64,000 nucleotides of DNA from Gammaproteobacteria bacterium. GTDB taxonomy: Bacteria; Pseudomonadota; Gammaproteobacteria; Eutrophobiales; Eutrophobiaceae. The notes below the pieces were generated by a model that worked only from the letters and a program-made list of their open reading frames with translations, had not been told where the DNA came from and did not search any database. The translations under genes were made by a program, and so were the position numbers. Below are positions 1,405 to 54,321 of the stretch, piece after piece (the first letter of the stretch is position 1; each line of letters starts with the position of its first letter). Location: assembly GCA_965198875.1 (NCBI GenBank), contig CBDAPU010000001.1, positions 131,146 through 195,145 on the forward strand, given 5' to 3'.

Positions 1405-1553
1405 AATGAATGCAATATATCCATCGCATCTTCAAGGGATAAGGCGATCTTGGCGTGCGTTTCGCCGTGTTTTGTCTTGCCTTTTAGAGCAATAATCCGA
1501 GTTAGTCCGAGTTTTCGCGCGCATAATAATTAAAGAGAAGGCTTGCGCAATGG

Positions 1554-1567
1554 TTGCATTCGAAGTA
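1554..1567 (+). promoter_or_regulatory. shared 14-bp cis element TTGCATTCGAAGTA upstream of the SSF transporter operon
   Basis: Exact 14-mer. A TTGCGCAA half-site-like copy sits 11 bp upstream at 1543-1550. The element is followed by a TAnAnT -10-like hexamer (TACATA). Confidence 0.5.
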
Positions 1568-1692
1568 CATATTATACATCATTGAAACTTAAAAAGATCC
1601 CGCAGAGAAATACGCAAGAAAGACCGAAACAGGCTGGATGGGATAACGTGATCAGCGGCTAAAATGATGTTGAGATTATCAAGACTTAAGGG

Positions 1693-3306
1693 ATGGCGAT
1701 GGCTGAGTTTGGCACACTGAACTGGTTTATTCTGATCCTCTATATCATCGCCAATCTGGTGCTGGGCTACTACCTCGGCAAGAAGATCAATACCGCCGAG
1801 GATTTTTATATCGGCAGAAAAACCACGCCCTGGTGGGCCATCGGGATCTCCGTCATCGCCACTTATGTCAGTGCGCTCACCTTTCTCGGCGCACCGGCCT
1901 GGTCTTATACCGAGGGCCTGTCCGTCATTGCCATTCACCTTAACTACCCGATCGTGATTTTTGTGGTGATCACCTTGTTCTTTCCGTTTTTCTATAACAG
2001 TGGCGTGGCCTCGATTTATGAGTATATTGAAAGGCGTTTTGGCATGAAGGCGCGCGGGCTTATCTCCTGTATATGGATGCTGTCCCAGACCCTGACCTCA
2101 GGCGCTATTCTGTATGCGACCTCGCTGGTGCTCTCTTTTATCACTGGTATTGATGTTATTCACGCTATTTTCATCGTCACCATCATCGCCCTGATTTATA
2201 CGGCGCTGGGCGGCATTACGGCGGTGATCTGGACGGACGTCATACAGTCCGGCGTGCTGTTTATTGGTGCGATCATCATCGTCTATGCCTTACTGACGCA
2301 AATGTCGCTACCGCTGCACGAGACATTGTTGCAACTGAAAGCAGAGGGGAAAACCAACCCGCTGAATTTCTCCCTTGACCTCTCCGAGGTGACGACCATC
2401 TGGTCCGGCATTATCGCCATGACGATTTTTCATATTAACGTCTACGGCACCAACCAGATGATGGTGCAACGGACGCTGGCGTCAAAAAACATGGGTGACG
2501 CCAAAAAATCCTACATGCTCATGGGCTATCTGGCTTTTTTCATTTACTTCTTCTTTATCCTGCTGGGCGTGCTTTTTTACAGTTACTACGGCGGGCGGCA
2601 GTTTGAAAACGGCAACACCATCATCCTGCAATTTGCAGCGGACTACGGCCTGCCGGGTCTGATGGGGATCATTGCCGCGGCGGTCATGGCCGCCTCCATG
2701 TCCAGCATGGACTCCGCCTTTAATTCTCTGTCCACCGTGGCGACTGTGGATTTCTATCAAAAGTATTTCAGGAAAGACGCCAGCCCACAGCATTATCTTG
2801 TGGTTAGCCGGGTCTTGACGGTGGTCTTTGCCGTTTTGATTATCGTTCCGGCCATTTTGTATTCCAGAAGTGAAGGCTCCGTGCTGGAGGTATTAAGTAA
2901 AGTGGGTTCATTCTTTGTCGGCGCCCAGTTGGGGATGTACGTCCTCGGCTTCTTCTCCAAACAGGCCACGGAAAAAGGTCTGCTGGTGGGCACGGCGGCG
3001 GCCTTTATGGCTGTGGCCTGGGTCGCCACGGATACCGATGTGGCCTGGCCCTGGTATTGCGCTATCGGCGTCATCGTCAGTGTCATCGTCACCCTCATCG
3101 CCAGTTATCTCATTGACGGCGTGCAGATGGAATACTCCGATTACACCATCAAAGGCCAGATCGCCCGATTCAAAAACGAAGGTCTGGATGAAAAAGAAGG
3201 CGGCTGGTATCTGGTGCCCGGCAAGATAGACAAAAGCAGTTATCTTTTGCTGCTCTTCTTTGCATTGGTCATCGCCTTTCTGTTCGCCTTTGAAAAGTTC
3301 ATATAA
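1693..3306 (+). CDS. sodium:solute symporter (SSF/SSS family) transporter
   Basis: 537 aa, multi-TM. Conserved SSF N-terminal region (PWWAIGISVIATYVSALTFLGAPAWSYTEGL). Paralog of 10295-11908, roughly 60-65% identical by eye. Confidence 0.85.
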   Translation: MAMAEFGTLNWFILILYIIANLVLGYYLGKKINTAEDFYIGRKTTPWWAIGISVIATYVSALTFLGAPAWSYTEGLSVIAIHLNYPIVIFVVITLFFPFFYNSGVASIYEYIERRFGMKARGLISCIWMLSQTLTSGAILYATSLVLSFITGIDVIHAIFIVTIIALIYTALGGITAVIWTDVIQSGVLFIGAIIIVYALLTQMSLPLHETLLQLKAEGKTNPLNFSLDLSEVTTIWSGIIAMTIFHINVYGTNQMMVQRTLASKNMGDAKKSYMLMGYLAFFIYFFFILLGVLFYSYYGGRQFENGNTIILQFAADYGLPGLMGIIAAAVMAASMSSMDSAFNSLSTVATVDFYQKYFRKDASPQHYLVVSRVLTVVFAVLIIVPAILYSRSEGSVLEVLSKVGSFFVGAQLGMYVLGFFSKQATEKGLLVGTAAAFMAVAWVATDTDVAWPWYCAIGVIVSVIVTLIASYLIDGVQMEYSDYTIKGQIARFKNEGLDEKEGGWYLVPGKIDKSSYLLLLFFALVIAFLFAFEKFI

Positions 3307-3369: not shown

Positions 3370-4389
3370 TTGACCATGACGTCCACCACCCTCAGAAACA
3401 AAAAGCAGATCAAGACCTGGCTTAATAATATCGCCCATGCCTCCAGGGCTGATCTGACACAACACCTGCAAGCCGCTTACCATGAAGACGTCCACTGGCG
3501 GGGATCACATCCCCTAAATGAAGTGCATGGTCTTGATGCGCTGGAGAAAACCGTATGGGCGCCCTTGCTAGAGGCCTTCCCGGATCTGGAACGGCGAGAC
3601 AATATCATCATCGGCGGTGCTTACGAAGGGCGTGATTATGTCGCTACAGTCGGTCACTATGTGGGCCGGTTTGAGCAGGACTGGCTGGGCATACCGGCGA
3701 CAGGCGGCGTGATCTATCTTCGCTATGGTGAATTTCATCAGCTCATGGATGAGAAGATCATTCAGAGCACTGTGCTGATCGATGTGCTGGATGTGATTCG
3801 GCAAGCCGGGATCTGGCCCTTGCCTCCGGCCCTGGGGAGCCCGGAGATGTGGCCGGCGCCGCTTGGCGTCGATGGCATTTTGCTGAGTGAACAAGATGAG
3901 CGGGAGTCGGCCGCCAGTCTGAGGCTGACCTGCGATATGCAAGCGTCCTTACATAACACCATAACAGAGCGGGAAGCCTTGCTCAGTATGTCGCAGGTGA
4001 ACTACTGGGATCCGAAAATGATGTGGTACGGTCCCTGTGGGATCGGCACAGGGCGGGGCCTTGAGGGGTTTGTGGACTGCCATCAAAGACCCTTTAGAGT
4101 GGCATTTGTGCAGCGCAAGTACGGTGGTCATTACGCCAGGATTGGGGATGGTAAATACTCGGCCACAGGCGGCTGGCCAAGTGTGGTGGCGAGACATGAA
4201 GGCGATGGCTGGCTGGGGATGCAGGCGACGGGGCGTGAGATCAACATGCGGGTGATGGATTTTTACTGCAGTGATCAGGGAATGATACGGGAGAACTGGG
4301 TGCCGATCGACATCATCGATATATTGTTGCAAATGGATGTGGATATTATGGCGCAGCTCAGGGAGCGACCCGCCGGGTACTCCACATAG
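3370..4389 (+). CDS. tandem NTF2/SnoaL-like (predicted ester cyclase-like, COG5485-type) protein, paralog 1
   Basis: 339 aa. Two repeats each ending in a G(I/V)PATG...ENW...D...LL.Q(M/L)G signature typical of SnoaL-like predicted ester cyclases. 64 bp downstream of the SSF gene, likely the same operon. Confidence 0.7.
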   Translation: MTMTSTTLRNKKQIKTWLNNIAHASRADLTQHLQAAYHEDVHWRGSHPLNEVHGLDALEKTVWAPLLEAFPDLERRDNIIIGGAYEGRDYVATVGHYVGRFEQDWLGIPATGGVIYLRYGEFHQLMDEKIIQSTVLIDVLDVIRQAGIWPLPPALGSPEMWPAPLGVDGILLSEQDERESAASLRLTCDMQASLHNTITEREALLSMSQVNYWDPKMMWYGPCGIGTGRGLEGFVDCHQRPFRVAFVQRKYGGHYARIGDGKYSATGGWPSVVARHEGDGWLGMQATGREINMRVMDFYCSDQGMIRENWVPIDIIDILLQMDVDIMAQLRERPAGYST

Positions 4390-4473
4390 CGGCAGGCTGA
4401 TGCGGATCTATCCGTTCACTGGATTTTACTATCACCACCCTGATGGCAACAGGACATAAAGCCGCCGCTGGAC

Positions 4474-5460
4474 ATGGAAAAAAACATGCGCAGTAAAACG
4501 ATCGTCAGTCAGTTTTATCATGCCCTCTGTGATGATGATGAGAGCAGCGCACTCAATCATCTCAGTGCTGAGGTGAGATGGTGTGCCGCACACCCCGTCA
4601 ATGATCGGCAGGGGCATGAGCAGTTTTTGACGGATTATTGGCGACCGATAAAAACAGCGCTCCCCGACATCGAATACAAGCCTTTTATCATGCTGGCCGG
4701 CGAATACGAAGGGCGACAGTGGGTGGATAGTACCGGCTATTTCATCGGCACCTTCACCCAGCCCCTGTTCGATATACCGCCCACAGGTAAAACACTTTAT
4801 CTGCGCTTTGCTGAAATGGCATGTATTGAACACAACCGGATCACTGAATGCTACATCATCCCTGACTTTCTTGACGCCATGCACCAGGCCGGGGTCAATC
4901 CCGTCCGCCCCGCTTTGGGCCATGATGGCCTGATCATGCCGCCCTCCAGCATGGACGGGCTACATCCTGATCATGCCACGGCAGAGCAAAGTGAGAAAAG
5001 CCTGCGGCTCGTCAAGGCGATGCTGGCCGGTCTCGCCCGCTATGACGGCAAGTCACTGCTCAGCATGCAGCAGGAGAAATTCTGGCGCCCGCATTTTATG
5101 TGGTATGGCCCGGCGGGGGTGGGCGCCACCCGTGGCTTGCAGGGCTTTCGGGAGCATCACCAGGGGCCATTCCTGGCCGCTTTCCCGGACCGCTCTGTCG
5201 ATGGCTACCTGAATTATGTCGCCGAGGGTAATTATGTCGCTACCGGCGGCTGGCCACACATGTCGGCAAGGCACACAGGCGATGGCTGGCTGGGCCTGCC
5301 GGCGTCAAACAAGGCATTAACCCTGCGGGTGATGGACTTCTGGCGCTGTGAGGGCGAGCGCTTATGCGAGAACTGGGTCAGTATCGATATGACTCACCTG
5401 TTGAGACAAATGGGGCACGATGTGTTTCAACCACTACGTGACGGGCAGGTGCCTAGCTAA
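4474..5460 (+). CDS. tandem NTF2/SnoaL-like protein, paralog 2
   Basis: 328 aa. Same two-domain architecture (…IPPTGKTLYLRFAEM…; …GLPASNKALTLRVMDFWRCEGERLCENWVSIDMTHLLRQMG). Confidence 0.7.
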   Translation: MEKNMRSKTIVSQFYHALCDDDESSALNHLSAEVRWCAAHPVNDRQGHEQFLTDYWRPIKTALPDIEYKPFIMLAGEYEGRQWVDSTGYFIGTFTQPLFDIPPTGKTLYLRFAEMACIEHNRITECYIIPDFLDAMHQAGVNPVRPALGHDGLIMPPSSMDGLHPDHATAEQSEKSLRLVKAMLAGLARYDGKSLLSMQQEKFWRPHFMWYGPAGVGATRGLQGFREHHQGPFLAAFPDRSVDGYLNYVAEGNYVATGGWPHMSARHTGDGWLGLPASNKALTLRVMDFWRCEGERLCENWVSIDMTHLLRQMGHDVFQPLRDGQVPS

Positions 5461-5482
5461 TACTGGTTTAAGAGAGACAGAC

Positions 5483-6469
5483 ATGCAAGGTTTTGATGCG
5501 GAGTTTATTGATTATGAGCATTATATCTTATCGATCACTGATCGGATCTGGAAAGACAAAAATATCGGCGCCATCTCCCGTTACTACAGCAGGGACGCCG
5601 TGATCCATACCCTGGGCGGCCCCATCAATGGCAGCGAGGCGGTGATGAACGGCACCATAAAAACACTGGCGGCCTTTCCAGACAGGTTGCTCAATGCCGA
5701 GGCGGTGATCTGCACGGGCAATGATGAAGCGGGTTATTACTCCTCCCATCGTATCATCAGTCCTGACATGACCAACCTGGGGCACAGCGAATTCGGCCCG
5801 CCCACCGGCAAGCAGGCAACCGTTCGCACCATTGCCGATTGTTTAGCGAAAGAAAATCAGATCCATGAAGAATGGCTGATGCGTGATAATCTGGCGTTGG
5901 TGCAACAACTGGGTTTTGAGCCACATGAAGTGGCGCAAAAACTGGCGGCGGAAAATCAAAATAACCAACCACTGCATGACTGGCTGGCGGCGGAAATTGA
6001 GCGCATCGCCACCCAGCCCCCTGTGCCACTGTCCGCCAACATAGCGGATCTGAAAACCGACTGGACCGCCTATGCCCGGCACCTCTGCACTGGGCTCTGG
6101 CAAAAGCGGGACGTCTCTGTGATTGACAAGCTCTATGCGCCCGAGGCGGCTGTGCATGCCCCCGCTGGTCGGGAAATGACCGGGCATGGGCAGATCAAGG
6201 CCAGTGTCAGTGAGCTTCTGTCAACCCTGTCGGACACACGGATCAGCGTTGATCATGTCTGCTCGGCCCAGCACAATGATGAGGAAACCGACCTCGCCCT
6301 GCGCTGGGTGTTGACCGGCAGGCATGACAACGACGGCATCTATGGCGCCGCTTCACATAAAACCCTCCTGTACCTTATCGCCACACATCTGCATATCCAT
6401 CAGGGGATCATCACAGAGGAATGGACGGTCTTTGATGAGCTGGCCGTGTTGCAACAAATTTACCATTAA
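5483..6469 (+). CDS. tandem NTF2/SnoaL-like protein, subtype B (paralog of 13457-14614)
   Basis: ORF track gives 5420-6469. The ATG at 5483 (MQGFDAEFIDYEHY) sits just after the previous stop. The N-terminus aligns with 13457-14614 (DYEHYILSITDRIWKDKNIGAISRYYS vs NIIDYIVRITFKIWEERDVEYIGNTYS) and the C-terminus matches as well (ITEEWTVFDELAVLQQI vs IVKEWMLFNELDVMMQI). Confidence 0.65.
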   Translation: MQGFDAEFIDYEHYILSITDRIWKDKNIGAISRYYSRDAVIHTLGGPINGSEAVMNGTIKTLAAFPDRLLNAEAVICTGNDEAGYYSSHRIISPDMTNLGHSEFGPPTGKQATVRTIADCLAKENQIHEEWLMRDNLALVQQLGFEPHEVAQKLAAENQNNQPLHDWLAAEIERIATQPPVPLSANIADLKTDWTAYARHLCTGLWQKRDVSVIDKLYAPEAAVHAPAGREMTGHGQIKASVSELLSTLSDTRISVDHVCSAQHNDEETDLALRWVLTGRHDNDGIYGAASHKTLLYLIATHLHIHQGIITEEWTVFDELAVLQQIYH

Positions 6470-6791
6470 CCCAGCTCGGCTTTCAGGTGAGTTATTTTTC
6501 GTCCATCTTTACGCCCTCTCTTCAAAAAATCCTGCTGGCGTTTGCCCTCATTGATTATTCCGGCATCCGACTAACCTAGCCTATCCCGGTGGAAAACGCT
6601 CCAATAAGGTTTCGAATGTAAGACTTAAAACTTGAGTTACTTGCTATGTGATGTGAAGGAATTATTAAGGAGCCTTTAGAATAAATCGGCCCGTAATCTG
6701 TCAGAGGATACAAACCTAAAAATGCAATTTTATTTTTATAATAAAACCAATAATTTTAAGAGATATTTTTCTTGACGGCGCATCCCTGCAC

Positions 6792-6802
6792 ACCACAGGA
6801 AA
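6792..6802 (-). promoter_or_regulatory. shared element 2 (TTTCCTGTGGT), reverse-complement copy
   Basis: Plus strand reads ACCACAGGAAA, about 130 bp upstream of the TonB-dependent receptor start. Confidence 0.3.
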
Positions 6803-6853
6803 CTCCGATTAAACCAGAGCTTGCCTTAAAATCAGGCAAAACCCGGGTATTGC

Positions 6854-6867
6854 TTGCATTCGAAGTA
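6854..6867 (+). promoter_or_regulatory. shared 14-bp cis element TTGCATTCGAAGTA upstream of the disrupted TonB-dependent receptor
   Basis: Exact 14-mer. The flanks (atTGCTTGCATTCGAAGTAtATTTTATG) are nearly identical to the element upstream of the paralogous receptor at 22906. Confidence 0.55.
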
Positions 6868-6928
6868 TATTTTATGTGAGGATGTGCGCTATTCAAACTC
6901 AACAAACATGCAGGAGCCAGTGCTGAAA

Positions 6929-9325
6929 ATGACTACTTACCTTACCCCCCCCCCCCCCCCCCCCCCAAGTTTTATCATTGCTACGGCTGTTTACTCTCTC
7001 CCTGTGCGCTGTGGTCGGTATATCCGCCTATGCCGCTACTGTACTTGAGGAAGTGACCGTCACCGCACAGAAACGTGAACAAAGCCTGCAGGATGTGTCT
7101 GTTTCGGTAACCGCTGTAGACGGCGACATGCTCACCGACAAGGGGATTGTAGACGTCAGTCGGCTCGATGTGCTGGTTCCCGGTTTGATATTTCAACAGG
7201 CGGGTAACGATGTAAAATTTACTATGCGTGGCGCTCGCACCGGCCAGGTTGAGGCAAATGATGTATCAGTCGCCTTTTACACTGACGGTATTTATAGACC
7301 TCGCCATGGTCAGGCGCTGTCCGGGTTTATCGATGTTGAGCGAGTCGAGGTGCTACGTGGTCCGCAGGGCACCTTATTTGGTCGTAACTCCTATGGCGGC
7401 GCATCAACGTGATCAGTAAAAAGCCTTCCACCGAAGAAATCGACTATGGCGCAGCTTTCACTGTAGGTGACTATGAGCATTTACGCGGTGAGGGTTTTGT
7501 CAATATTCCTTTTAGCGATAAAGCGGCGCTTCGTGTGACCGGTGCTCGGGAAACCCGCGATCCCTATGTTGAAAATACCCTGATAGGTGATAGTGGTGGG
7601 CTTAAAGATGCCGATAACTGGTATGTACGGGGTCAATTCTCATTTGAATTTAGTGAAGACCTGAGTGTCTTACTTCGCGCCGAGCATTGGCAAGATGACG
7701 CCAATGGTAATGCCAGTTTTGGATATAAAGTACTTGGAGTGCCCATTAATTTAGCCACCGGTTTAACCAATGGGGTGAGCGGTACACTTCGAAATCGTAT
7801 TGGTCGGAGTGATGAATGTACAGGTACCTGTGGTCGAGCGGGAGCGGGTTTCGACTTTACCGCAACTCCAGGCCTGGATACTGCTCAGCCTACAAATTCC
7901 GACCCTTTCGAAATAGCACGCGATTTTGAGCCTCAGCGTGACATCAAAGAAGATACCCTGGCGGCGGAAATTAACTGGCGTGGTCTTGGTTTTGCCGACG
8001 TAAAAATCAATGTGTCCTATATGGATTATTCTGAATTACGACTCGGTGACACTGACTTGTCCGGGTTTCCGTCAATTATCGCAGGTAATGATATCACCTC
8101 AGAAACGACTACACAGGAGATTCAACTAACTTCAAGTCACGATGGCCCCTTGCAGTGGGTTGCAGGTCTTTACTTTCTACAGGAAGACCTGACCAATGCG
8201 TTTTTATGGATGGACATCAGTACATTGGTGGACAACGCCCCGGACCCGGCCGCTGATCCGATTTATACCTGGGCATCATGGATGCGGCAAATACGTTTGG
8301 ATACGCGCTCGCATGCGGCTTATAGCCAGGGCACTTATTCCCTGCTGGATGAGCGAATGCGGATAATTGGCGGGATACGTTACACCTATGATAAACGTGG
8401 ATGGGATATCTTTGGCCCGGGCATGGGTAGTGCATTAGAAGGTGCATTTGCCGCCGATTTGTCTGCGCTGTCGTTTAACACACCCTCTCTTGAAAACAGT
8501 CGGCAGTCGTGGAACAAGATCACCTGGAAAGCCGGTATAGAATGGGACATTAACGATGATGCAATGATCTATTTTACAACATCAACCGGTTTTCTTTCCG
8601 GCAATGCCCAGGGGGCGTTCAATGGCGCTGGTAATTATGATGAGAGACTGGTTGACGCCTATGAACTTGGGCTTAAGAGCACCCTGCTTGACGGCGCTAT
8701 GAGGTTTAATCTCGCTGCCTACTACAATGATTATGCTGATCTATTGTCTACTTCCTTTGTCGATGTCGGCGGCACTACCCTGGCTTTTTCTGACAATGCC
8801 GGCGCAGCCCATGCTTTCGGTGTCGAGCTTGAAGTGGATTGGACGCCAATAGAGAGATTAAGTCTGGGGCTACGTGCCGCTTACACCAGTGCGGAATATG
8901 ATGAATTCATATTAACTAATGTCTTCGAGGAAGGTGGCAGTACTATCAATGGAGTTGCTAATCTGTTTTCCCTGGATGGCGCTGAAATAATCCAGTCTCC
9001 GGATATCACTGCTACCTTACTTGCCGCCTATGATTTTGATCTGGGTGATAAGGGGACATTGACGCCAAGCGTAGCGTTTTACTACTCTGATGATTATCGC
9101 AATGCAGACGCACCGTTTTTCTTCGGCGTACAAGAGAGCTTCACCAAAACGGATCTGGCATTAGGTTGGACTTCATTAAATGGCTACTGGAATGCACAAG
9201 CATACGTGCATAACCTGGAAGATGAGGAAATTATGCTTGATGCAACGCGCTTTGGCGGTAATGTCGCAATAGCAGATTTCGCCCCTCCGCGTACATTTGG
9301 CTTTCGAATGGGATATCGTTTCTGA
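6929..9325 (+). pseudogene. TonB-dependent receptor, disrupted by two frameshifts (poly-C tract near codon 7; 1-nt loss near 7405)
   Basis: The ATG at 6929 encodes MTTYLTPPPPPPP..., paralleling MITYLTPPPQVSLLPRLFTL of the intact paralog at 22983. The receptor frame resumes at 6978 (LLRLFTLSLCAVVGISAYA, plug domain), out of phase across the 22-C run. Second break: GGAST* at 7410, where the paralog and the downstream frame (ISKKPSTEE) imply GGAINVISKKPS. One missing C in gcgc(c)atc would restore it. The 7409-9325 frame carries the beta-barrel and C-terminal TonB box region. Confidence 0.7.
6945..6966 (+). repeat. homopolymeric poly-C tract, 22 nt, inside the 5' coding region of the TonB-dependent receptor
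   Basis: Directly counted: 22 consecutive C from 6945 to 6966. The paralog at 22983 has 10 C at the equivalent position, in frame (PPP). Confidence 0.9.
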
Positions 9326-9710
9326 ACTTCACAAAGTACGCTCTCAAAGCGGATCGTCGTCATAGCTTTGGCGCCACCGCATCATCCCAAGCCGTAACTG
9401 GTTTTCCAGTTGCGGCTTTATTTAGAGTTTTCTGTGATACAGCAGGCTGGCAAGTCCATCCCGGGCTTGCCAGAGGCCCGCTGAATACTCACGGTATCCT
9501 TTATGCTGGCTGAAAATATCAGAGAAGCGGTTGCGGAAGATGAATAAAGACTGTCTGAACTCCTTGCACAGCCTGTATCGACTTTACGGCGAAGAGGGGG
9601 TGAAAGAAATACTCAGCGAATTGTATGTGCAGTAGGGTGCTTATGAAACTTGGCGCCATAGCTTCTTTTATGGCGATGGGCGGTGCCTATGGGGTGCATA
9701 AACGAGAATT

Positions 9711-10160
9711 ATGTTCAACCGGGCCCTGCCCGATGAACCTGTCATTGAGGGCATTATCAAAGGTGCTTATTGCTATCGCCACACACGCAGGCGGAAAGGA
9801 AATAGAGTGAACCTGCTTGTCAGCGGCGCCATCATGGAACAGGCATTGCCGGGATCGGAACAACTGGCAGAACCAGGGCCATCGCCTCAACATCTGGAGT
9901 ATTGCCAACTTTACCGAGTGGCATAAGACTGTGCTAGATGGAATTATCTACACTCGCAACAGCCAACAAGATAATCTTAGTAAACCAGCTATTTGCAAAA
10001 GGACAAGGCATTTTCGTTATCGTTGCTGATTATGTGAAAAGTCTTGCCAGCGGTACTGTTGTTTACTTGTCCGGCCCTTGTGAAATACTGGGGACGGATA
10101 GCTATGGACTGGGTGAATCGCATCCAGGCTTGCGCGACCTCTTTAGAGATCAGTGAACGA
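9711..10160 (+). pseudogene. decayed 3' remnant of aceE (pyruvate dehydrogenase E1 component), C-terminal ~150 codons with frame changes
   Basis: Three overlapping-frame ORFs together recapitulate the AceE C-terminus. EGIIKGAYCYRH..GNRVNLLVSGAIMEQALPGSEQLAE matches EGVYRLETIEGSKGKVQLLGSGSILRHVREAAEILA. HRLNIWSIANFTEWHKTVLDG matches SDVYSVTSFTELARDGQD. FVIVADYVKSLASGTVVYLSGPCEILGTDSYGLGESHPGLRDLF matches AVASTDYMKLFAEQVRTYVPADDYRVLGTDGFGRSDSRENLRHHF. There is no upstream catalytic portion and no aceF follows. Confidence 0.45.
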
Positions 10161-10294
10161 TATATCGTCCAGGCGCCATTGATAAAAAATGCCTTCAGGT
10201 ATCCGCGGTATTGAGGTGAATAAATCTGACCCACGTACAGGTAAACTATGACACCTCTGGGGAGTGGTGCATGGACCCCTTAATCAGGGCTTGC

Positions 10295-12434: not shown

Positions 12435-13442
12435 TCATTCACATCGGTTAATATCTCGCATTCTCTCGAGAACATCCAGGCCCTGCTGTTTCAAAAAATA
12501 AATCAGATCGATAAATATCCAGTTCTCGGCAAGTTTATCGCCTTCACGCCGGTAGATATCAACAACACGCATTTCCGAGCGCACGCTGGATGCCGGAAGC
12601 CCCATAAAACCCCCGGTTGGTTTCGCTGACAGGTTTGCCCAGCCGAACCAGCCGGCAAAACTGCCCTCGGCAAGGCGACAAATATGACCATTGAATTTGA
12701 TACTATCCAGACCCTGGCTAAACGGCCCCTGATGTTGTTCCTCATACCTCTCTATGGTATAGGTCGCACCGATCCCCGCCGGCCCAAACCAGAGCATATC
12801 GTTGTGCCAGGTTTGGGCGAGTTCATCCTGAGTTGAGTTAAATCTTTCTGTGCTTGTCAGGTCATCACACATCCGCTTGATCAGCGCCAGAGTTTTAGCC
12901 CCTTCTGCCGGAGCCTGGTGAGCAAAGAGCAAGCCATCATGGGTGCGTGGTCCGGGAGTGATGATGGCGGCGCCTGTCTGTAGTGGTAGCGGACTTAAAC
13001 CGGCCTGCTGCATAATACTGATAATGTCGCAGAATAAAGCAGTCTCGCTGATCTTTCCGTCAGTAATTCGATTGAACTCGGCATAACGCAGGAACCCCAT
13101 TTTTCCTGTAGATGGAATACCAAGCCAGTCCTTGTCGAACAGACCCAGTAAATGTCCCATGGAGCAAACCCACTCACTGGAAAAATTGTCCACATCATTT
13201 AATCCCGCCATGAAAATATCCTGACGCCTCTGTATCGCCGTGAATGATTCTCGGAACGGCTTCCAGAATACATCTGCTACGGCATTTGCACCCTGCTGTT
13301 CGTAGAACGGATGCATACCCCGCCAGTAATAATCGCGCGTGGTATAGCGCTTTAGTACTTCAGCAATATCATTTTCCTGTGCCGCATCCAGCTCATCGTA
13401 ATACTGTCTTACCAGGGCCTTGCTATTTTGAAAATTAGTCAT
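12435..13442 (-). CDS. tandem NTF2/SnoaL-like protein, paralog 4
   Basis: 335 aa. Two repeats (…GIPSTGKMGFLRYAEFNRITDGKISE…; …GLPASSVRSEMRVVDIYRREGDKLAENWIFIDLIYFLKQQG). Confidence 0.7.
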   Translation of the reverse strand: MTNFQNSKALVRQYYDELDAAQENDIAEVLKRYTTRDYYWRGMHPFYEQQGANAVADVFWKPFRESFTAIQRRQDIFMAGLNDVDNFSSEWVCSMGHLLGLFDKDWLGIPSTGKMGFLRYAEFNRITDGKISETALFCDIISIMQQAGLSPLPLQTGAAIITPGPRTHDGLLFAHQAPAEGAKTLALIKRMCDDLTSTERFNSTQDELAQTWHNDMLWFGPAGIGATYTIERYEEQHQGPFSQGLDSIKFNGHICRLAEGSFAGWFGWANLSAKPTGGFMGLPASSVRSEMRVVDIYRREGDKLAENWIFIDLIYFLKQQGLDVLERMRDINRCE

Positions 13443-13456
13443 GGTTTTTTACTCAA

Positions 13457-14614
13457 TTAACTACGCGCAACAGCGATCTGCATCATGACATCGAGTTCAT
13501 TAAACAACATCCATTCCTTAACGATATATCCGTTGGTGATCTGATGTTGCGTGATCCCCCAGATCTGGACTTCACAACCTGTAGGTACGCCATAAATGCC
13601 TGCGCCTGTATGCGTACCTATGGCACTCCAGCGCTCCGATGTCAGATACCCCTGCTCGTCATTGCCCATCCAGTAAACCTCATCAACCTGCAGTTTTAGA
13701 TCCGGAAAAGCGCTTATCAATGATAAAAGAAATCCCTGGTAAGATTTGTGTCCGGTAAAAGTCCGGTTAGTTGGCCCATGAAATCCAAAGTTTGGATCAT
13801 AACTATCCACCAGCGCTGCATAGTCCCGACTGTTCCAAAGCCTATTGAAGTTTTCACGGGTGAATGCATCCACATCAAAACCTGAAACCGGGGAACTGAT
13901 GGATATTGCCTGCACGGGACTCGCCGCACAACGTAATTCCTGCCACGTTACCCTATCCCTCGGCCAGCCGGCAGGTGCCTCCCTGATCATCCTGGTAACT
14001 ATCTCATCCAGATCATGACCGAGTTGCAACAACATACTTGAGTTGTTGTATAAAACATGTTCAAGAAAAATCACATTGTCCAAAGCAACACAGTTAGCAA
14101 TGACTAATACGTCAACATGCCTGTTGGTAGCGAGACCATATTTACTGTCGCCGTCGTTTGTTCCGCGGATGATGGTACGATGTGATGTGTGATACCCCAC
14201 TTCATCATCGCCAGCCCAGATAATCTCATCGGCAAGCAACTTAATATCAGAGAACGCGCCAGTTGTATGGTAGGTGTCCACGATGATTTTTTTATTTCCT
14301 GATTGCAGGCCATAATCGTCATAGACTTGGGATGTCTCCGAGTATGTGTTGCCGATATACTCAACATCTCGCTCTTCCCAGATTTTGAATGTAATACGCA
14401 CAATATAATCGATAATATTCCGGTAAGTCCCCTCAAAACCAGACATAGACTGCCTGGGGCCAAAATCATCCGGTATACGTTTTTCACTATCGGTAAAACC
14501 ACCACCGAAACCAGTACGGCCAGCATAAGCATCCAGTGAAATATTGTAATCAGTTGGCATATGTTCTCGCGCTAATGGCTCAGCCGTCTTTTTAGCAATC
14601 ATGTTTGATTCCAT
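13457..14614 (-). CDS. tandem NTF2/SnoaL-like protein, subtype B (paralog of 5483-6469)
   Basis: 385 aa. Shares the subtype-B signatures (…NIIDYIVRITFKIWEERDVEYIGNTYS…, …HTGAGIYGVPTGCEVQIWGITQHQITNGYIVKEWMLFNELDVMMQIAV) with 5483-6469. Confidence 0.65.
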   Translation of the reverse strand: MESNMIAKKTAEPLAREHMPTDYNISLDAYAGRTGFGGGFTDSEKRIPDDFGPRQSMSGFEGTYRNIIDYIVRITFKIWEERDVEYIGNTYSETSQVYDDYGLQSGNKKIIVDTYHTTGAFSDIKLLADEIIWAGDDEVGYHTSHRTIIRGTNDGDSKYGLATNRHVDVLVIANCVALDNVIFLEHVLYNNSSMLLQLGHDLDEIVTRMIREAPAGWPRDRVTWQELRCAASPVQAISISSPVSGFDVDAFTRENFNRLWNSRDYAALVDSYDPNFGFHGPTNRTFTGHKSYQGFLLSLISAFPDLKLQVDEVYWMGNDEQGYLTSERWSAIGTHTGAGIYGVPTGCEVQIWGITQHQITNGYIVKEWMLFNELDVMMQIAVARS

Positions 14615-22777: not shown

Positions 22778-22905
22778 CTACTTTCATTTCATAGACTTAG
22801 CGAAATACCCCTCTATTTTCACTGCCAAAATGGCGCACCGGGCTGTTGCAACTGTTGTTTTTTTACACATTTTTAGTCGTCATTTGCGAAAGTGAAACAT
22901 AATGC

Positions 22906-22919
22906 TTGCATTCGAAGTA
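22906..22919 (+). promoter_or_regulatory. shared 14-bp cis element TTGCATTCGAAGTA upstream of the intact TonB-dependent receptor/sulfatase operon
   Basis: Exact 14-mer followed by CATTTTATG, 64 bp upstream of the 22983 start. Confidence 0.55.
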
Positions 22920-22982
22920 CATTTTATGCAGGATGCGCGCTTAATTTAACCCCAACAAACATCTGAGGAGCGAGTACTGAAC

Positions 22983-25409
22983 ATGATTACGTATCTTACC
23001 CCCCCCCCTCAAGTCTCATTATTGCCACGGCTGTTTACTCTCGCCCTGTGCATGATGCTCGGTGTATCCGCCCATGCCGCCATTACACTTGAAGAAATTA
23101 CTGTGACCGCTGAGAAACGTGCGGAGAGCGTGCAAGACGTTGGACTATCAATATCAGCTTTTGATGAGGATGCCATGGACCGTGCCGGTATTGATGATGT
23201 AAGTAGAATCGAACTGATTGTTCCCGGCGTTAACTTTGCCTATGCCGGTAATGACGCCAAATTCAATGTCCGCGGTGCTAACTCTACCAATACGTTTAAC
23301 GATAATGGTTCTATCGTGGGTACGTATATTGATGGAGTATATAAACCTCGTGCATCACAACAAACACGGGCTTTTTTCGATGTAGAGCGTGTTGAATTCC
23401 TGAAAGGTCCTCAAGGCACACTTTACGGACGCAATACCTTTGCCGGGGCCCTGAATCTTCATACAAATCGTCCCTATCTTGAAGGAATCAGTGGTGGTCT
23501 TGAGGCTGGCTATGAGCGCTTTAACACCATGAAGTTTGAAGGCTATGTGAATGTACCCCTTAGCGATCAGTTCGCCGTACGTCTTGCTGGATTCGTTGAA
23601 GACGGTGATGGCTTTGTCAAAAACAATGCAGGCCCGGATGTAGGTGCTCCGGATGAGCAGGGTGTACGGCTCAGTCTCTTATGGGAAGCCAATGAAAATT
23701 TCGATGTGGTTTTTCGTTACACCCGTATCAGGGAATCAGGTACTTCAGCAGGTCTGTTCGGTTATAGAAATATTTGTCGTCGCGTTACCCCACAAGGCAT
23801 AACCGACCCCTTTGGTACAGTGACAGATTGTCAGAATCCACAAAATGGCTCAGACAGCTTGCCTTCAGGTAATTCAGGGCCCTATAACGTCTCACAGGAT
23901 TATGTCCCAGATGCTGATGTTGATGATGATAATGTCACTTTAGAAATGAACTGGGATGCCGGTCCTGTACTGATAAAGTCAGTTACGTCTTATACGGATT
24001 TTAAAAACAACATCGGCTTTGATTTTGACTATAGTCAAAATCCATTTCAGAGGGGTGGATTTGACGAAAGTGCTGAATCGTATACTCAGGAATTTCAGTT
24101 TACGTCAGATTACGATAGTCCTTTCCAGTGGACCTCTGGTGCTTATTACTCACATGATGAAACGTTTTTCAGTTTTACTATTTTCAACCAGACTGAAGAG
24201 AGTATGGAGGGGATGGGGGATGACAGGCGCCCGGTTAATCGTCCCACTGTCATGGGCCCTGGTGGAGCAGACTTTGAATTGTTGAACGGAACACCACTGG
24301 TTTCAACTGCTACAAGTCTCAGTGGTTTCTTCGGCAGCAGCCAGTGGATTGAGATCAATACCTTTGGACTCTATCTGCAAGGTGAGTTCAGTGTGAATGA
24401 TAATCTTCGCCTTATTGGTGGCGTGCGATATAACTATGAGGAGAAAGACCTCTCCGGCGGTGGCAGTAACTTCACCGCTAATGGTCCCGTGACGGTAACT
24501 GTTGAAAGTGGTGCGGCGCCTTTAATTGTCCCGGAGTTCTCCCGTGATATATTTGCTTATAATCGTAATGCTACCGGCGCCAACAATCTCAGGCGGTCGT
24601 TTAATAATGTAAGCTGGAAAGCAGGTATTGAATATGATTTGACGAACTACGATGCGATGCTCTATTTCACAACTGCAACAGGATTCTTATCAGGCGCGGT
24701 CAACTCTGACGGCTCCTCTACTGACGAACAGGAATCGCAGTTATATGAAGCTGGTGTCAAGAGTACGCTCATGGATGGTCGCCTGCTATTTAACCTGTCA
24801 GGCCACTATACTGAATACACTAATTTGTTATCACAGTTCCAGGTTCCTATAGCTGGTATTGTTCAAACATTCAGTCAGAATGGCGGCGAGATTGACGCTT
24901 GGGGTATCGAACTTGATACTGTCTATAATCCTGTCGATAATTTGACATTTGTATTTTCAGCAGCCTATCTGGACGCAGAATTCGGCGTGTTTGGTCAGAC
25001 AAACCCTTACCAGTTACTTAATGGCGTTGTACAAAGTTTTGTAGATGTAGATGGAGAGACACCTGGATGGTCACCGGACTTTACTGCTTCAATCAGTGCT
25101 TCCTATGATCTTCAACTTAACAATGGTGCCACACTGACGCCTTATATCCAGTTTTATTACAGTGACGGATATAACACGAGTAACCTGTTATCTATTGACC
25201 CAAGCCATCAACAAGATAGTTTTACCAAAACGGATCTACGCTTGGTATGGCGTTCACCCAGCAATAAATATGCCTTAGAGGGCTTTGTTGAGAACATTGA
25301 AGATGAAGAAGTGTTGGCGCGTGGTAACAATGGCGGTGACGATAATGTACAAACAGGTTATCTCTACCCTAGAAATTATGGCGTACGCTTTAAAGCGAGT
25401 TGGGACTAA
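22983..25409 (+). CDS. TonB-dependent outer membrane receptor
   Basis: 808 aa. Signal peptide, plug domain (ITVTAEKRAESVQDVGLSIS), beta-barrel, C-terminal aromatic residue. Carries a C10 tract near codon 7, in frame. Intact paralog of the disrupted 6929-9325 gene. Confidence 0.85.
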   Translation: MITYLTPPPQVSLLPRLFTLALCMMLGVSAHAAITLEEITVTAEKRAESVQDVGLSISAFDEDAMDRAGIDDVSRIELIVPGVNFAYAGNDAKFNVRGANSTNTFNDNGSIVGTYIDGVYKPRASQQTRAFFDVERVEFLKGPQGTLYGRNTFAGALNLHTNRPYLEGISGGLEAGYERFNTMKFEGYVNVPLSDQFAVRLAGFVEDGDGFVKNNAGPDVGAPDEQGVRLSLLWEANENFDVVFRYTRIRESGTSAGLFGYRNICRRVTPQGITDPFGTVTDCQNPQNGSDSLPSGNSGPYNVSQDYVPDADVDDDNVTLEMNWDAGPVLIKSVTSYTDFKNNIGFDFDYSQNPFQRGGFDESAESYTQEFQFTSDYDSPFQWTSGAYYSHDETFFSFTIFNQTEESMEGMGDDRRPVNRPTVMGPGGADFELLNGTPLVSTATSLSGFFGSSQWIEINTFGLYLQGEFSVNDNLRLIGGVRYNYEEKDLSGGGSNFTANGPVTVTVESGAAPLIVPEFSRDIFAYNRNATGANNLRRSFNNVSWKAGIEYDLTNYDAMLYFTTATGFLSGAVNSDGSSTDEQESQLYEAGVKSTLMDGRLLFNLSGHYTEYTNLLSQFQVPIAGIVQTFSQNGGEIDAWGIELDTVYNPVDNLTFVFSAAYLDAEFGVFGQTNPYQLLNGVVQSFVDVDGETPGWSPDFTASISASYDLQLNNGATLTPYIQFYYSDGYNTSNLLSIDPSHQQDSFTKTDLRLVWRSPSNKYALEGFVENIEDEEVLARGNNGGDDNVQTGYLYPRNYGVRFKASWD

Positions 25410-27747: not shown

Positions 27748-28782
27748 ATGTGCGTAGCACAAAATCAATTTAATAAAAAACAGATTTGGGATTTCTGGCG
27801 ACAACTGGAAGAGGCCGATGTGGCGGAATGTCTACAGGCAGTGCATTCATTTTGCCACCGTGATCTTGGCTGGCACGGGCCGGAGCCGATTGCTGAGCTA
27901 CAAGGCACTGAGCACTTTTGCAGCAGGTTCTGGCAGCCGCTAAGGGCTTCTTTCCCCGATCTGAAACGCAGGATATTTATCTTTATGGGGGGGCGATCAA
28001 ACGGCAAGGTCGATGGCGATGCAGCCCGTGACGGGCGGATGTGGGTGTCCGGCACCGGCACGCTAGATGGGACATTTACCCATGACTATCTGGGCGTGCC
28101 TGCAAGCGGTGAGCGGATCAGCATTCGCTGGGGGGAGTTCTGCAAACTGCAGGAAGGCAAGATAACCGAGATATTCTGCCTGCTGGATTTTATCGATCTG
28201 ATGCAGCAGGTGGGGATTGAGGTGTTGCCGCCGAGCCTGGGGGCGGATGGTGTTTATTCCCCGCCAGGTGTTGCTGATGGCGTGATGCTGGATCCACAGG
28301 ATGAGAGCAATTCAGCATACGGCCTTGAGCACATTCGCCGATTTCTCTTTGACGGCCTGAACCGTTACGATCAAGATCACTTGAGTAGCATGGGAATGGC
28401 GACGTTTTTTCATCCTGATATAAGCTGGTATGGGCCCGGCGGTATCGGCGCCTGTTTCAGCTTAAAGGACTTTGAAGATCATCATCAGCGTCCCTGGCTA
28501 CAGGCTTACCCGGATCGTAGAGTCGTCGATATCGATGCTCTTTTTGCCGAGGGGGATTACAGTGCAGCGGCGGGCTGGGGAGATGTGGTGGCGACACACA
28601 CGGGTGAGTATAAAGGCGTCCCGGCCACGGGCAATGTGATCGAGTTTAACGGCCTGGACTGGTGGAAGCGGGATGGTGAGCGCTTCATCGAAAACTGGGT
28701 GTTTGTCGATATGGTGCATTTGTTTAACCAGCTCGGCGTCGATCTGTTTGCGAGGATGCGGCAAACAACAAGGCGCACCTGA
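27748..28782 (+). CDS. tandem NTF2/SnoaL-like protein, paralog 6
   Basis: 344 aa. Signatures …GVPASGERISIRWGEFCKLQEGKITE… and …GVPATGNVIEFNGLDWWKRDGERFIENWVFVDMVHLFNQLG. Confidence 0.7.
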   Translation: MCVAQNQFNKKQIWDFWRQLEEADVAECLQAVHSFCHRDLGWHGPEPIAELQGTEHFCSRFWQPLRASFPDLKRRIFIFMGGRSNGKVDGDAARDGRMWVSGTGTLDGTFTHDYLGVPASGERISIRWGEFCKLQEGKITEIFCLLDFIDLMQQVGIEVLPPSLGADGVYSPPGVADGVMLDPQDESNSAYGLEHIRRFLFDGLNRYDQDHLSSMGMATFFHPDISWYGPGGIGACFSLKDFEDHHQRPWLQAYPDRRVVDIDALFAEGDYSAAAGWGDVVATHTGEYKGVPATGNVIEFNGLDWWKRDGERFIENWVFVDMVHLFNQLGVDLFARMRQTTRRT

Positions 28783-34090: not shown

Positions 34091-34660
34091 TTAATCTTTT
34101 ATACGAGCGACATATTCAGCTTTGCGGGTGTCAATTTTTATTATTTCACCCGGATCTACAAACAGGGGGACTTTGACCACCGCACCCGTCTCCAGTGTCG
34201 CCAGTTTGCTTCCACCAGCGGCGGTATCACCCCGTATCCCGGGAGCGGTTTCAGCAACTTGTAGCTCGACAAAGTTAGGCGGCAGTATGCTGAGCGGCGC
34301 ACCGTTCCACAGCGTCACCTCGCACATCTCCTCACCCTTCAGCCACCGACTGGTGTCCCCCATCGCTGTCGTATCTACGGCAATCTGCTCATAACTGTCA
34401 TTGTCCATAAAGTGCCACATCTGCCCATCGCTGTAGAGGTACTGTAGTTTCACTTCCATCACGTCCGCCGCTTCAACACTTTCACCTGACTTCCAGGTTC
34501 TCTCCAGCACCCGGCCTGTCTTTAAGTTGCGAAATTTAACCCGATTAAAAGCCTGACCTTTACCGGGTTTGACGAATTTTTTCTCAATAATGGAGCACGG
34601 CTCCCCATCGATCAGCAGTTTTAAGCCTGTCCTGAACTCGTTGGTGCTATAGGTCGCCAT
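34091..34660 (-). CDS. efp: elongation factor P
   Basis: 189 aa, collinear with E. coli EF-P, including the KPGKGQAF loop carrying the modified lysine. Confidence 0.9.
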
Positions 34661-38586: not shown

Positions 38587-39801
38587 TTGAGTTTGACCTC
38601 AGCAACAGGTGAGACGGTTTACTCCAGGCGGAGTTATCTGGTGCAGTCAGCGGCCCATGCCCAGTCAATAGCCGCCGCCGTTATCAGCACGTGGGACATG
38701 GAAGAGCCTGTGCTCTATGGTTTGCCGGAAGTAGATGATCGCTACCATGTCTGGCGTGTGCCGTTGCTCGCCACCTGCTCTGAAAACCGAATTGGTGAGC
38801 TTGTCATTGACGCAAGAACGGGAGTTCTGGATAGCAAAAAATCGACAAAAGTCACTGCCGTATCCGCCCGACAGGGGCGTGAAAATGACTCTGAACCTGC
38901 CGATGTCAGCGGGGCGGGTAAACATGTCCGCAGGCATGTCAGGAAACCGGAGCTCAGAAACACCATCCTGTCCGGCGCCAGTGAGCAGACACTGGCAATC
39001 TTGCCTTCCGAGTCTGTTCAACTGATGTTTACTTCCCCGCCCTACTTCAATGCCAGACCGGATTATGCTGATTATCTCGCCTATGAGGATTATCTTGGCG
39101 GCCTTCAGAAGGTGATACATCAGGTACATCGGGTGCTGGAAGAAGGACGGTTTGCAGTCATGAATTGCTCTCCCGTTTTAGTACGTCGTGCCAGAAGATC
39201 GGAGGCGTCAAGAAGAATTGCCGTTCCTTTCGATATCCATCAAATTTTTATTAAGGAGGGGTTTGATTTTATTGACGATATTATCTGGGAGAAGCCGGAA
39301 GGCGCCGGCTGGGCGACCGGCAGGGGCAGGCGTTTTGCCGCTGATAGGAATCCTCTACAGTACAAGGCCGTTCCGGTGACTGAGTATGTGCTGGTATACC
39401 GTAAGAAATCGGCGAAGCTCATCGATTGGCACATAAGAAATCATCACTCCCAGGAATTGGTTAAAAAATCAAAGATTGCCGATGGCTATGAAAAAACGAA
39501 TATATGGAAAATCAAACCGGCACATTGCAAAGAGCATCCGGCGATCTTTCCACTCGAGTTGGCGGAGAAAGTGATTCGCTACTATTCCTTCGAGGGCGAT
39601 GTGGTCATGGACCCATACGCCGGCATAGGCACTGTTGGTGCGGCGGCGATCAAGCTGCATCGTCGCTTCGTATTAAGCGAGGTGAATCCAGAGTATATCG
39701 AGCACATACGATTGAATGTGAACGCATGGCTTGGGAAGGACGCTGAGAATGTGTACTGTGTGAATTGTGCGCCTGTCCAAACAGACGAGGCTTTGTTGTG
39801 A
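38587..39801 (+). CDS. DNA methyltransferase, beta-class N4-cytosine/N6-adenine type (PF01555-like), with ~130-aa N-terminal extension
   Basis: 404 aa. Motif IV SPPY (FTSPPYFNA) precedes motif I (DPYAGIGTVGAAA) near the C-terminus, the circularly permuted order of beta-class MTases. The first ~130 aa have no obvious motif. Confidence 0.75.
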   Translation: MSLTSATGETVYSRRSYLVQSAAHAQSIAAAVISTWDMEEPVLYGLPEVDDRYHVWRVPLLATCSENRIGELVIDARTGVLDSKKSTKVTAVSARQGRENDSEPADVSGAGKHVRRHVRKPELRNTILSGASEQTLAILPSESVQLMFTSPPYFNARPDYADYLAYEDYLGGLQKVIHQVHRVLEEGRFAVMNCSPVLVRRARRSEASRRIAVPFDIHQIFIKEGFDFIDDIIWEKPEGAGWATGRGRRFAADRNPLQYKAVPVTEYVLVYRKKSAKLIDWHIRNHHSQELVKKSKIADGYEKTNIWKIKPAHCKEHPAIFPLELAEKVIRYYSFEGDVVMDPYAGIGTVGAAAIKLHRRFVLSEVNPEYIEHIRLNVNAWLGKDAENVYCVNCAPVQTDEALL

Positions 39802-39819
39802 ACAACAAAAAGGAGAGCC

Positions 39820-40901
39820 ATGCTAAAAAACTAATCGATTGTATTCCGAAACAATGCCTTGATTTCATCAAGGTTTCCGGGCGTGAGTTACTTGCGCGCC
39901 TGGGGCACGATGAAATGCGAGCGATCGTTGCCGGGATCCTCTGTGGAGAGAACGTCAGGGCGGCGACAGAGCCATTAACACGACGCAGAATCGCCATCTT
40001 AAATGCGGCTATTGCATTAACACTGGCGAGAGCGGCCCAATTCATGAGCCCGGAAGAACTTCTGGATGCGGCCCACAAGGAGTTTATTGAAGTGGGAAAA
40101 CATGATCCAGAACGCACAGTGCTAATGTGGATTTTAGGGCTAACGAACAAGCAGATCCAGAATGTACTCCGTACAGATGAAAATGCCTGGCTGGAGTTCA
40201 TAACCCTCGCCAAACAAACCGGGCGCGATTTTTTACAATACTCATCGCAAGAGTTTGGGGATTTGCAGTGGACAATAAAAATCGATGACGTCTGTGCTGA
40301 ATGGGACTGGCTCTGGGCTCACTCATTGATGATCAGCATTGGCGCCCAAACCCTTGCGACCCGAGGTGCGGAAAAATCAATGTATGGAAAGTTTTTTGAG
40401 AAAATGATCCTGGGTTCCGTATTGGAGATTCTTGGGTTTGAGTTAGACGCCGGGCGATCAGGAAAAGCAATGTCGTATTGGCTTAGTGAGAGAGGCGAGC
40501 GCAGAGAGAGTGATGCAACAGCAATTGTGTCAGGGGGTTATGGCGTGCGCTTTGATATCGGTTTTATCGGGCCGGGAAATACTGAAATCAGCCTTGATAA
40601 AGTATCCAGGTTCGCACGAGTGGATGAGATTGCAGGTCGTGAGTATGAGATGGCGACCATCATTATTGTTGATCGGATCGGCGAGGGCAGTCGAATAACC
40701 GAGCTTGCCGCAGAAATAGATGGCACCATCTTGCAGATGAGCTCTTCTCTATGGGCGAAGGATCTGGACGGTTTATTAAGTGAGCGCTTTGCAGCGTATA
40801 GCAGGGTGTTTGACCATCAGGCGCAAGCAAAAGAGATAAGAGAAACCGTTTTTTCCCGCCTCAGTGAGACGGATCTGGAAAAACTTTTCAGTGAAGCCTG
40901 A
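39820..40901 (+). CDS. hypothetical protein; candidate cognate restriction endonuclease of the adjacent methyltransferase (by position only)
   Basis: The ATG at 39820 (MLKKLIDCIPKQ) is preceded by AAGGAGAG and lies 18 nt after the MTase stop, same strand. ~360 aa with no recognised family motif. The assignment is purely contextual. Confidence 0.35.
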
Positions 40902-54237: not shown

Positions 54238-54321
54238 TGCGATCATAAATAGCCGATAGTCTCGCAAAACAGCATCGCCATCTCTCTACACATCTTGGCG
54301 TATTTGCTGGCACTGCGGGCA

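Follow-up and report, generated by a model that had tools for sequence, protein, structure and literature searches.

Repeat-driven phase variation of TonB-dependent receptors (TBDRs) is textbook knowledge for a few host-restricted pathogens. The haemoglobin-haptoglobin receptors (hgp) of Haemophilus influenzae carry CCAA repeats, and the opa adhesin genes of Neisseria carry CTCTT repeats in the region that codes for the signal peptide. Here we analyzed a TBDR gene in a 64-kb stretch of the genome of an uncultured gammaproteobacterium (contig CBDAPU010000001.1; the whole stretch is called the window below) in which a pure run of 22 cytosines (C22) starts 16 nt past the ATG at position 6929, and which a preliminary description of the same DNA had proposed as a candidate slipped-strand phase switch. 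In Neisseria meningitidis, hmbR and hpuA contain poly-G tracts within their open reading frames (ORFs); hmbR is ON at tract lengths divisible by 3, its tracts range from G8 to G15, and their variation has been shown experimentally (PMC3786947). Homopolymer tracts at the 5′ end act as reversible inactivators (Orsi et al. 2010, PMC2831843), and the 5′ poly(A) tract of Listeria monocytogenes inlA reverts at about 1000 times the point-mutation rate (PMC2831843). Frameshifts at homopolymers can also be rescued by transcriptional slippage, as described for Citrobacter tssM (PMC4256274) and in transcriptome-wide data (PMC5574713).

The locus resembles Neisseria HmbR/HpuAB in that a G/C mononucleotide tract lies within an ORF of a TBDR system and its length modulo 3 sets the reading state. 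It differs in the length of the tract, in the placement of the tract within the n-region of the signal peptide, in the presence of a second lesion, and in being known from sequence alone; moreover, HmbR/HpuAB acquire haem iron for an obligate human pathogen, whereas here a generic receptor belongs to a catabolic cluster (with SnoaL-like proteins, SSF transporters and a sulfatase) of an uncultured gammaproteobacterium. As in opa, the repeat falls within a cleaved signal peptide, such that in-frame variants would yield the same mature protein, and the repeat-bearing 5′ end is common to paralogs; the opa unit is a pentanucleotide and its products are adhesins, whereas here the unit is a mononucleotide, the products are TBDRs, and two genes are known with the shared 5′ end. 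The hgp genes offer a further parallel as a TBDR paralog family with a simple-sequence repeat near the ORF 5′ end, but their repeats are tetranucleotides and their host is an iron-scavenging pathogen; a survey of simple-sequence repeats is available (PMC2651432). With inlA the locus shares a homopolymer that lies only a few codons past the start of a gene for a surface protein and leads to a tiny truncated peptide, although the inlA tract is poly(A) of about 7-8 bases as opposed to C22, and in a survey of gene 5′ ends poly(A) and poly(T) were enriched, not poly(C) (PMC2831843). Finally, as in Citrobacter tssM, a long homopolymer at a frameshift could yield some in-frame mRNA, but the documented slippage-rescued genes involve A/T runs, whereas here the run is of C and a second lesion would not be fixed by slippage.

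Reading frames and the shared 5′ end of the receptor gene

Read directly, the TBDR ORF begins ATG ACT ACT TAC CTT A and then enters the C22 run, and translation in the frame of this ATG begins MTTYLTPPPPPPPSF and terminates early (Table 1). The receptor itself continues in the +1 frame relative to the ATG (QVLSLLRLFTLSLCAVVGISAYA|ATVLEEVTVTAQKRE), which past the tract translates as QVLSLLRLFTLSLCAVVGISAYAATVLEEVTVTAQKRE, a signal peptide and TonB box, and leads into a Plug domain (Pfam E=3.5e-13). Both frames and the tract therefore read as had been described at first, with C22 putting the gene out of frame. The accompanying proposal that loss of two Cs or gain of one would join the frames did not survive: when the tract was varied in silico from C17 to C26, the ATG and receptor frames joined only at C18, C21 and C24, meaning that one C must be lost or two gained from C22, and all other lengths produced a stop after 38-43 aa. 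The locus accordingly displays two features of simple-sequence-repeat loci, an uninterrupted repeat inside an ORF and a length that toggles, in silico, between in-frame and out-of-frame states. Signal-peptide cleavage is predicted at AYA↓A, read by eye from the AXA motif.

A second lesion lies further into the gene, within the conserved motif GGAINVISKKP, where one base is absent at 7402/7403, the wobble position of an Ala codon. We placed it by codon-by-codon comparison with orthologs on two other contigs (L002 and L003) and with tbdr2, an intact paralog in the window; the window reads GGC GGC GC- ATC AAC GTG, and the orthologs read GGC GGC GCG ATC AAT GTC or GGT GGT GCC ATT AAT GTC. Of the earlier claim that one C was lost at about 7405, the single-base loss stands and moves to 7402/7403, where only the position, and not the base, can be assigned. 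The site contains no homopolymer longer than 2. Owing to this frameshift the first part of the receptor ends at TGA 7410-7412, and in the gene as it stands, slippage of the tract is not enough to restore the receptor; rather than a single uninterrupted ORF, the two frameshifts leave three separate frames (Table 1). We also considered a programmed -1 ribosomal frameshift at 7401-7410 and rejected it, as the site lacks an X-XXY-YYZ slippery sequence and one more base is present in the orthologs; reading A7403 twice would recover GGAINVISKKP.

Repair of both lesions (-1 C in the tract and +1 base at 7403) gave a 798-aa TBDR that lacks internal stops and ends in GFRMGYRF. Its identity is supported by an N-terminal Plug followed by a barrel domain, the class being defined by a 22-strand beta-barrel, and by further TBDR traits in the translation, namely a hydrophobic core LFTLSLCAVVGISAYA, then LEEVTVTA, and a C-terminal aromatic residue (GYRF). 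The repaired protein aligned over 95-98% of its own length with TBDRs of 770-810 aa and covered 97-98% of its orthologs. None of the NCBIfam siderophore/haem TBDR subfamilies reached its cut-off (best TIGR01783, 116.8 bits versus 223.5, with the others far below), and the gene context suggests organic nutrients as the substrate. In a public protein collection the receptor is recorded as a truncated protein, its only entry being the 638-aa barrel fragment (P0001, window 7409-9325, from GTG 7409); the 144-aa N-terminal ORF (6978-7409) has no exact entry in that collection.

Closer inspection of tbdr2 bore out the earlier statement that this intact paralog at 22983 has a C10 read as TPPPQ, at the position homologous to C22. 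The homologous tract thus differs in length between the paralogs (C10 versus C22), and between the common flanks CTTA and AAGT there are 22 nt in this gene and 12 nt (C10 + TC) in tbdr2; the 12-nt region is in frame, as would be anticipated if lengths divisible by 3 are ON. The two proteins are only 35% identical overall, yet a 5′ module of about 230 nt is conserved between the genes, with nucleotide identity of 84% between 6849 and the tract and 80% between the tract and 7080; the preceding 100 nt reach 46% and the following 300 nt of the gene 63%. Third-codon-position identity likewise reached 0.80 and 0.68 in codons 1-53 versus 0.04-0.52 elsewhere, and was low despite high amino-acid identity in codons 129-153 (0.24, amino acids 0.68) and codons 535-563 (0.40, amino acids 0.80). 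Module identity so far above that of the gene bodies indicates that the 5′ end was common to both genes much more recently than the bodies were, and these comparisons point to recent recombination between the two TBDR genes, as gene conversion or module transfer. In the leader, which reads ATGAYTACNTAYCTTA and then Cn, the codons differ from tbdr2 by one non-synonymous and two synonymous changes (ACT/ATT, ACT/ACG, TAC/TAT), a pattern of divergence that supports translation from ATG 6929. A poly-G/C sequencing artefact inserted in the assembly was rejected, given that both flanks are colinear with tbdr2 and the C10 lies at the same point.

The module begins near an upstream box (TTGCATTCGAAGTAYATWTTAT) that occurs at three sites in the window (1551-1576, 6851-6876 and 22903-22928), preceding the two TBDR genes and an SSF transporter gene; no copies were expected in shuffles. 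A related box, TTGCATCCGAAGT, lies 5′ of the TBDR ortholog on L002, a Tara metagenome contig (3897-3909). The box is not palindromic except for TTCGAA and probably serves a small regulon as its promoter or operator. Since it also stands before the SSF gene and before the ortholog, it is probably an older regulatory site, and the poly-C is not. A sigma-70 scan of 6450-7100 returned no plus-strand promoter, and a riboswitch or structured 5′ untranslated region was rejected, with no Rfam match at the gathering threshold or at E<=1 and folding z-scores of +0.6.

We then compared the tract with all other G/C runs in the window, which is 51.6% G+C and in which C runs reach at most 6 and G runs at most 8, apart from outliers of 10, 11 and 22. 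About 0.11 C runs of at least 10 and 2e-8 of at least 22 are expected in the window, and Markov-1 simulations (n=300) gave a mean of 0.18 G/C runs of at least 10 and a longest run of 12. With an expectation of 2e-8, C22 is not a product of chance. Codon preference was also rejected as its source, as CCC makes up 33% of Pro codons and, outside both leaders, PPP occurs once in 43 genes. Pfam annotation of the window identified exactly 3 TBDR genes among 43 ORFs, and all 3 G/C runs of at least 10 lie in these genes, one in each, with none in the other window genes (about 41) or in intergenic DNA. Placement of the tracts in TBDR genes by length fraction has P ~4e-4; counting two independent origins raises this to an estimated P ~1.4%, and the two-event count is the fairer one because both 5′ tracts share one origin.

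The check suggested at the outset, whether other TBDR genes carry 5′ tracts, succeeded within the window for tbdr2 and failed for the third TBDR, whose G11 lies mid-gene. That this third receptor has an internal G11 was itself correct: it is in frame and read as W-G-G-G-L, and a slip of +/-1 would truncate the barrel. A complete product in the ON state is encoded by tbdr2 (C10, 808 aa) and by the third TBDR (G11), not by the copy with C22. On the strand opposite the third TBDR there is also a 614-aa ORF at 44738-46582 (+), which is probably a spurious shadow ORF, given the clear minus-strand Pfam domains of the receptor.

Table 1. Coordinates of the receptor genes, tracts and associated elements in the window
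Feature	Position	Strand	Remarks
Third copy of the upstream box	1551-1576	+	3 mismatches; 5′ of SSF transporter gene 1693-3306; no following poly-C
5′ module, ~230 nt	6849-7080	+	Upstream box, Shine-Dalgarno, ATG, 5-codon leader, poly-C, signal peptide and TonB-box region; in tbdr2, 22901-23122
Upstream box TGCTTGCATTCGAAGTAYATTTTATG, 26 nt	6851-6876	+	Exact copies at 6851 and 22903; putative promoter/operator
Shine-Dalgarno AGGAG	6912-6916	+	12 nt 5′ of ATG 6929; tbdr2 counterpart GAGGAGC
ATG 6929 frame as sequenced (tract OFF)	6929-7048	+	39-aa product MTTYLTPPPPPPPSFIIATAVYSLPVRCGRYIRLCRYCT; stop 7046-7048
C22 homopolymer	6945-6966	+	5-7 prolines at in-frame lengths 18, 21 and 24; signal-peptide n-region
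Receptor frame, part 1	6966-7412	+	Q-V-L-S-L-L-R, hydrophobic core, AYA↓A, TonB box, Plug (Pfam, 6978-7412); TGA 7410-7412
Second frameshift	7401-7404	+	1-base loss, codon ~158, outside any homopolymer
Receptor frame, part 2	7409-9325	+	Beta-barrel, 638 aa, -1 frame, end GFRMGYRF; Pfam TonB_dep_Rec_b-barrel E=3.2e-32
Paralog tbdr2, intact, 808 aa	22983-25409	+	Same 5′ module
C10 of tbdr2	22999-23008	+	In frame, ACC CCC CCC CCT CAA; homologous position
Third TBDR, intact	44645-47416	-	Pfam Plug and barrel domains
G11 on coding strand of third TBDR	46082-46092	-	In frame, TGG GGG GGG GGG C = W G G G L, codon ~442

A possible slipped-strand switch and the competing explanations

The original proposal of a slipped-strand phase switch holds as far as the anatomy, the length-toggled frame and the confinement of long G/C runs to TBDR genes in the window are concerned, but its ON state is truncated by the second frameshift. 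We consider the chances about even (probability roughly 0.5) that the C22 locus is a real hypermutable switch or was one until very recently. Under this model, slipped-strand mispairing in replication would add or remove Cs, as anticipated from the known behavior of long homopolymers. At lengths of 18, 21 or 24 the gene would be ON, with translation from ATG 6929 running over 5-7 prolines and on through signal peptide, TonB box, plug and barrel; at other lengths it would be OFF, with translation stopping after about 40 codons, and the sequenced C22 would represent this OFF state. In-frame length changes would leave the mature receptor unaltered, since the predicted AYA↓A cleavage falls downstream of the prolines. 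The module, tract included, would have been exchanged recently with tbdr2, whose tract is in frame, and the copy sequenced here would be locked off, either by decay that had just begun during an OFF state or by a consensus error at 7403. By analogy with the described systems we infer that the tract may be hypermutable and reversible and may have adaptive value, possibly as bet-hedging, either against the cost of expressing the receptor or against phages or bacteriocins that exploit it.

A bolder version, which we regard as doubtful, is that the 5′ module acts as a portable phase-variation cassette spread by recombination among unrelated TBDR genes of this uncultured bacterium, be it free-living or host-associated, whose recipients would gain stochastic ON/OFF expression with an unchanged mature receptor and perhaps a throttle on translation through polyproline that depends on elongation factor P (EF-P). 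Ribosomes need EF-P for proline runs, such as the 5-7 prolines that the tract would encode in the ON state. An EF-P gene (efp) is present in the window at 34091-34660 (-), and its nearness to the polyproline tract is probably a coincidence.

Several observations weigh against a switch. The common origin of two of the three tracts weakens the enrichment statistic, and the 64 kb in which the enrichment was seen belong to a genome of at least 2.4 Mb. C22 is well outside the G8-G15 range of hmbR (PMC3786947), and a tract of this length would be extremely unstable and its consensus length unreliable. The second frameshift falls outside any repeat, would not revert easily and leaves this copy with an ON state of only about 160 aa. 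Lastly, no length variant of the tract was observed, and we found no sister-strain or metagenome copy of the locus: the upstream box gave 0 matches in genome contigs, and the leader and module patterns gave 0 in metagenome contigs (JGI).

Comparison with relatives revealed a receptor with ordinary orthologs and an unusual leader. The tract is absent from TBDR orthologs (identity of at most 66%), the closest of which begin with ordinary signal peptides such as MIHISKLSF, and the M-x-T-Y-L-T-poly-P leader was present in none of 119 other homologs among the matches listed, suggesting that the tract is derived in this lineage. A word-indexed protein search with an alignment of the two leaders found no other carrier, and an exhaustive HMMER search of 1.84 billion representatives with the leader returned 17 weak matches, of which 0 of the 8 examined had a poly-P leader. 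A protein-guided scan of genome contigs yielded one Lysobacterales TBDR of 24% identity, which is irrelevant here. As a measure of distance to sampled relatives, a TBDR from Candidatus Foliamicus sp. is 56% identical, and the closest ParE matches are 82% identical and come from gammaproteobacterial metagenome-assembled genomes.

Decay and sequencing error had both been named as alternatives in the original proposal, and both keep some probability. Loss of the gene for good, with poly-C as a mutational by-product that drifted to 22 once unconstrained and with no selected switching, is a possibility that we take seriously while holding it unlikely. It would account for two independent frame-breaking lesions, the second at a non-repeat site, and for a tract longer than typical functional ones; tbdr2 and the third TBDR may make the gene redundant, and about 970 nt directly downstream hold no recognizable gene. 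Such decay nevertheless leaves the restriction of long G/C runs to TBDR genes unexplained, and the tract is pure and in frame in the intact tbdr2, just as the third TBDR retains its G11. Beyond the two lesions the gene has neither stops nor large deletions, and its amino-acid evolution is not accelerated. We aligned the repaired protein with nine homologs and performed Tajima relative-rate comparisons, in which it showed 51-57 lineage-specific changes versus 82-93 for P0002-P0005 and 63-72 versus 83-89 for P0006. Of 258 positions at which the other homologs are invariant, it had changed 9, compared to 10 of 259 for P0006, an intact and equally isolated protein, and the nine changes are mostly conservative (V/A, D/E, G/A, Y/F, E/K, Q/E, V/I, D/E, A/E). 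A long-standing pseudogene is thus not supported by either the relative-rate or the invariant-site test; the receptor body appears from these comparisons to have been under purifying selection until very recently, and as there is no sign of prolonged relaxed selection, both lesions should be recent, reversible or artefactual.

Artefact in the form of a consensus or assembly error, with a true tract of 21 or 24 C, the 7403 base present and the gene intact, we judge improbable; in that case, too, a hypermutable tract would be conceivable. Judged by their contig names (ctg.._l, ptg..l), the closest relatives stem from long-read metagenome assemblies; the source contig is 2.41 Mb, and the genome studied here probably has the same long-read origin. 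Long homopolymers are the weakest point of such data, and a consensus of this type presumably does not fix a run of 22 bases to within +/-1. That two single-base corrections make the gene look fully functional fits an error as well. All other genes of the window (about 43), on the other hand, gave full-length domain matches with no frameshift in any, and none of the 69 homopolymers of at least 6 in its coding DNA breaks a frame, C10 and G11 likewise being in frame. Intact genes and in-frame homopolymers imply a low indel error, and if the rate is near zero across the window an error at 7403, outside any homopolymer longer than 2, is unlikely.

Expression that does not depend on the frame of the tract would take the form of RNA polymerase slippage on C22 or of a start at TTG 6978 (MLRLFTLSLCAVVGISAYA, a compact signal peptide) with the ATG-polyproline stretch as a leader peptide, and we regard it as very improbable. 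Both paralogs have the TTG at this position, and a start there would produce a signal peptide of canonical length, but no Shine-Dalgarno precedes it and ribosomes from ATG 6929 would run across it to 7048. The leader of tbdr2 shares the reading frame of the receptor, and its synonymous-biased divergence marks it as part of the ORF. RNA polymerase slippage is documented at homopolymers and can rescue frameshifted genes (PMC4256274, PMC5574713), yet the insertions on record prevail at runs of A and T rather than of C (PMC5574713). Neither route is accompanied by an RNA structure or Rfam family in the 5′ region, and neither would bypass the second frameshift.

Gene neighborhood

Six genes for SnoaL-like-domain proteins of about 330-385 aa, most with two Pfam stretches, lie at 3370-6469, 12435-14614 and 27748-28782 of the window. 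Interspersed among them are genes for two SSF transporters, two TBDRs, a LacI-family regulator, a sulfatase, an amidohydrolase, an HpcH aldolase and a racemase, and the SnoaL-TBDR-SSF arrangement recurs around the ortholog on L003 (942-3278). The SnoaL/SSF/TBDR cluster looks like a catabolic island. The interval 9326-10294 (~970 nt), between the receptor and an SSF gene, contains no convincing gene and only short overlapping ORFs in several frames; a motif in it, ILGTDSYGLGESHPGLRDLF, was considered as an aceE-like remnant (pyruvate dehydrogenase E1 C-terminus), and this was rejected when Pfam and PDB sequence searches gave no support. Elsewhere in the window, a DNA methylase (N6_N4_Mtase) adjoins a CfrBI-like restriction endonuclease at 38587-40901 as a type II restriction-modification pair, and an 11-nt tandem repeat (TGCTGGTTAAT, 3.3 copies, 53156-53197) lies directly 3′ of an L,D-transpeptidase (YkuD) gene (53195-54322, -), overlapping its stop codon.

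Implications of possible receptor switching beyond pathogens

To our knowledge, TBDR phase variation has hardly been sought in uncultured environmental or symbiotic gammaproteobacteria. Judged by its nucleotide and protein comparisons, the locus is a plausible instance, credible but unproven, of a known mechanism in a new lineage; what our analysis adds is a correction of the frame logic, the 5′ module common to the two genes, and evidence that speaks against long-term decay. If the lesions were consensus error or plain decay, the finding would be ordinary. In metagenome-assembled genomes, loci of this kind end up annotated as pseudogenes or split genes, as here, where only the barrel fragment is recorded, and receptor repertoires are under-counted as a result. 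If the tracts do vary, the switch would be transferable between receptor genes as a 5′ module, and it may serve against receptor-docking phages and bacteriocins or against the cost of expression; stochastic receptor switching would then be a general strategy that extends beyond pathogenesis.

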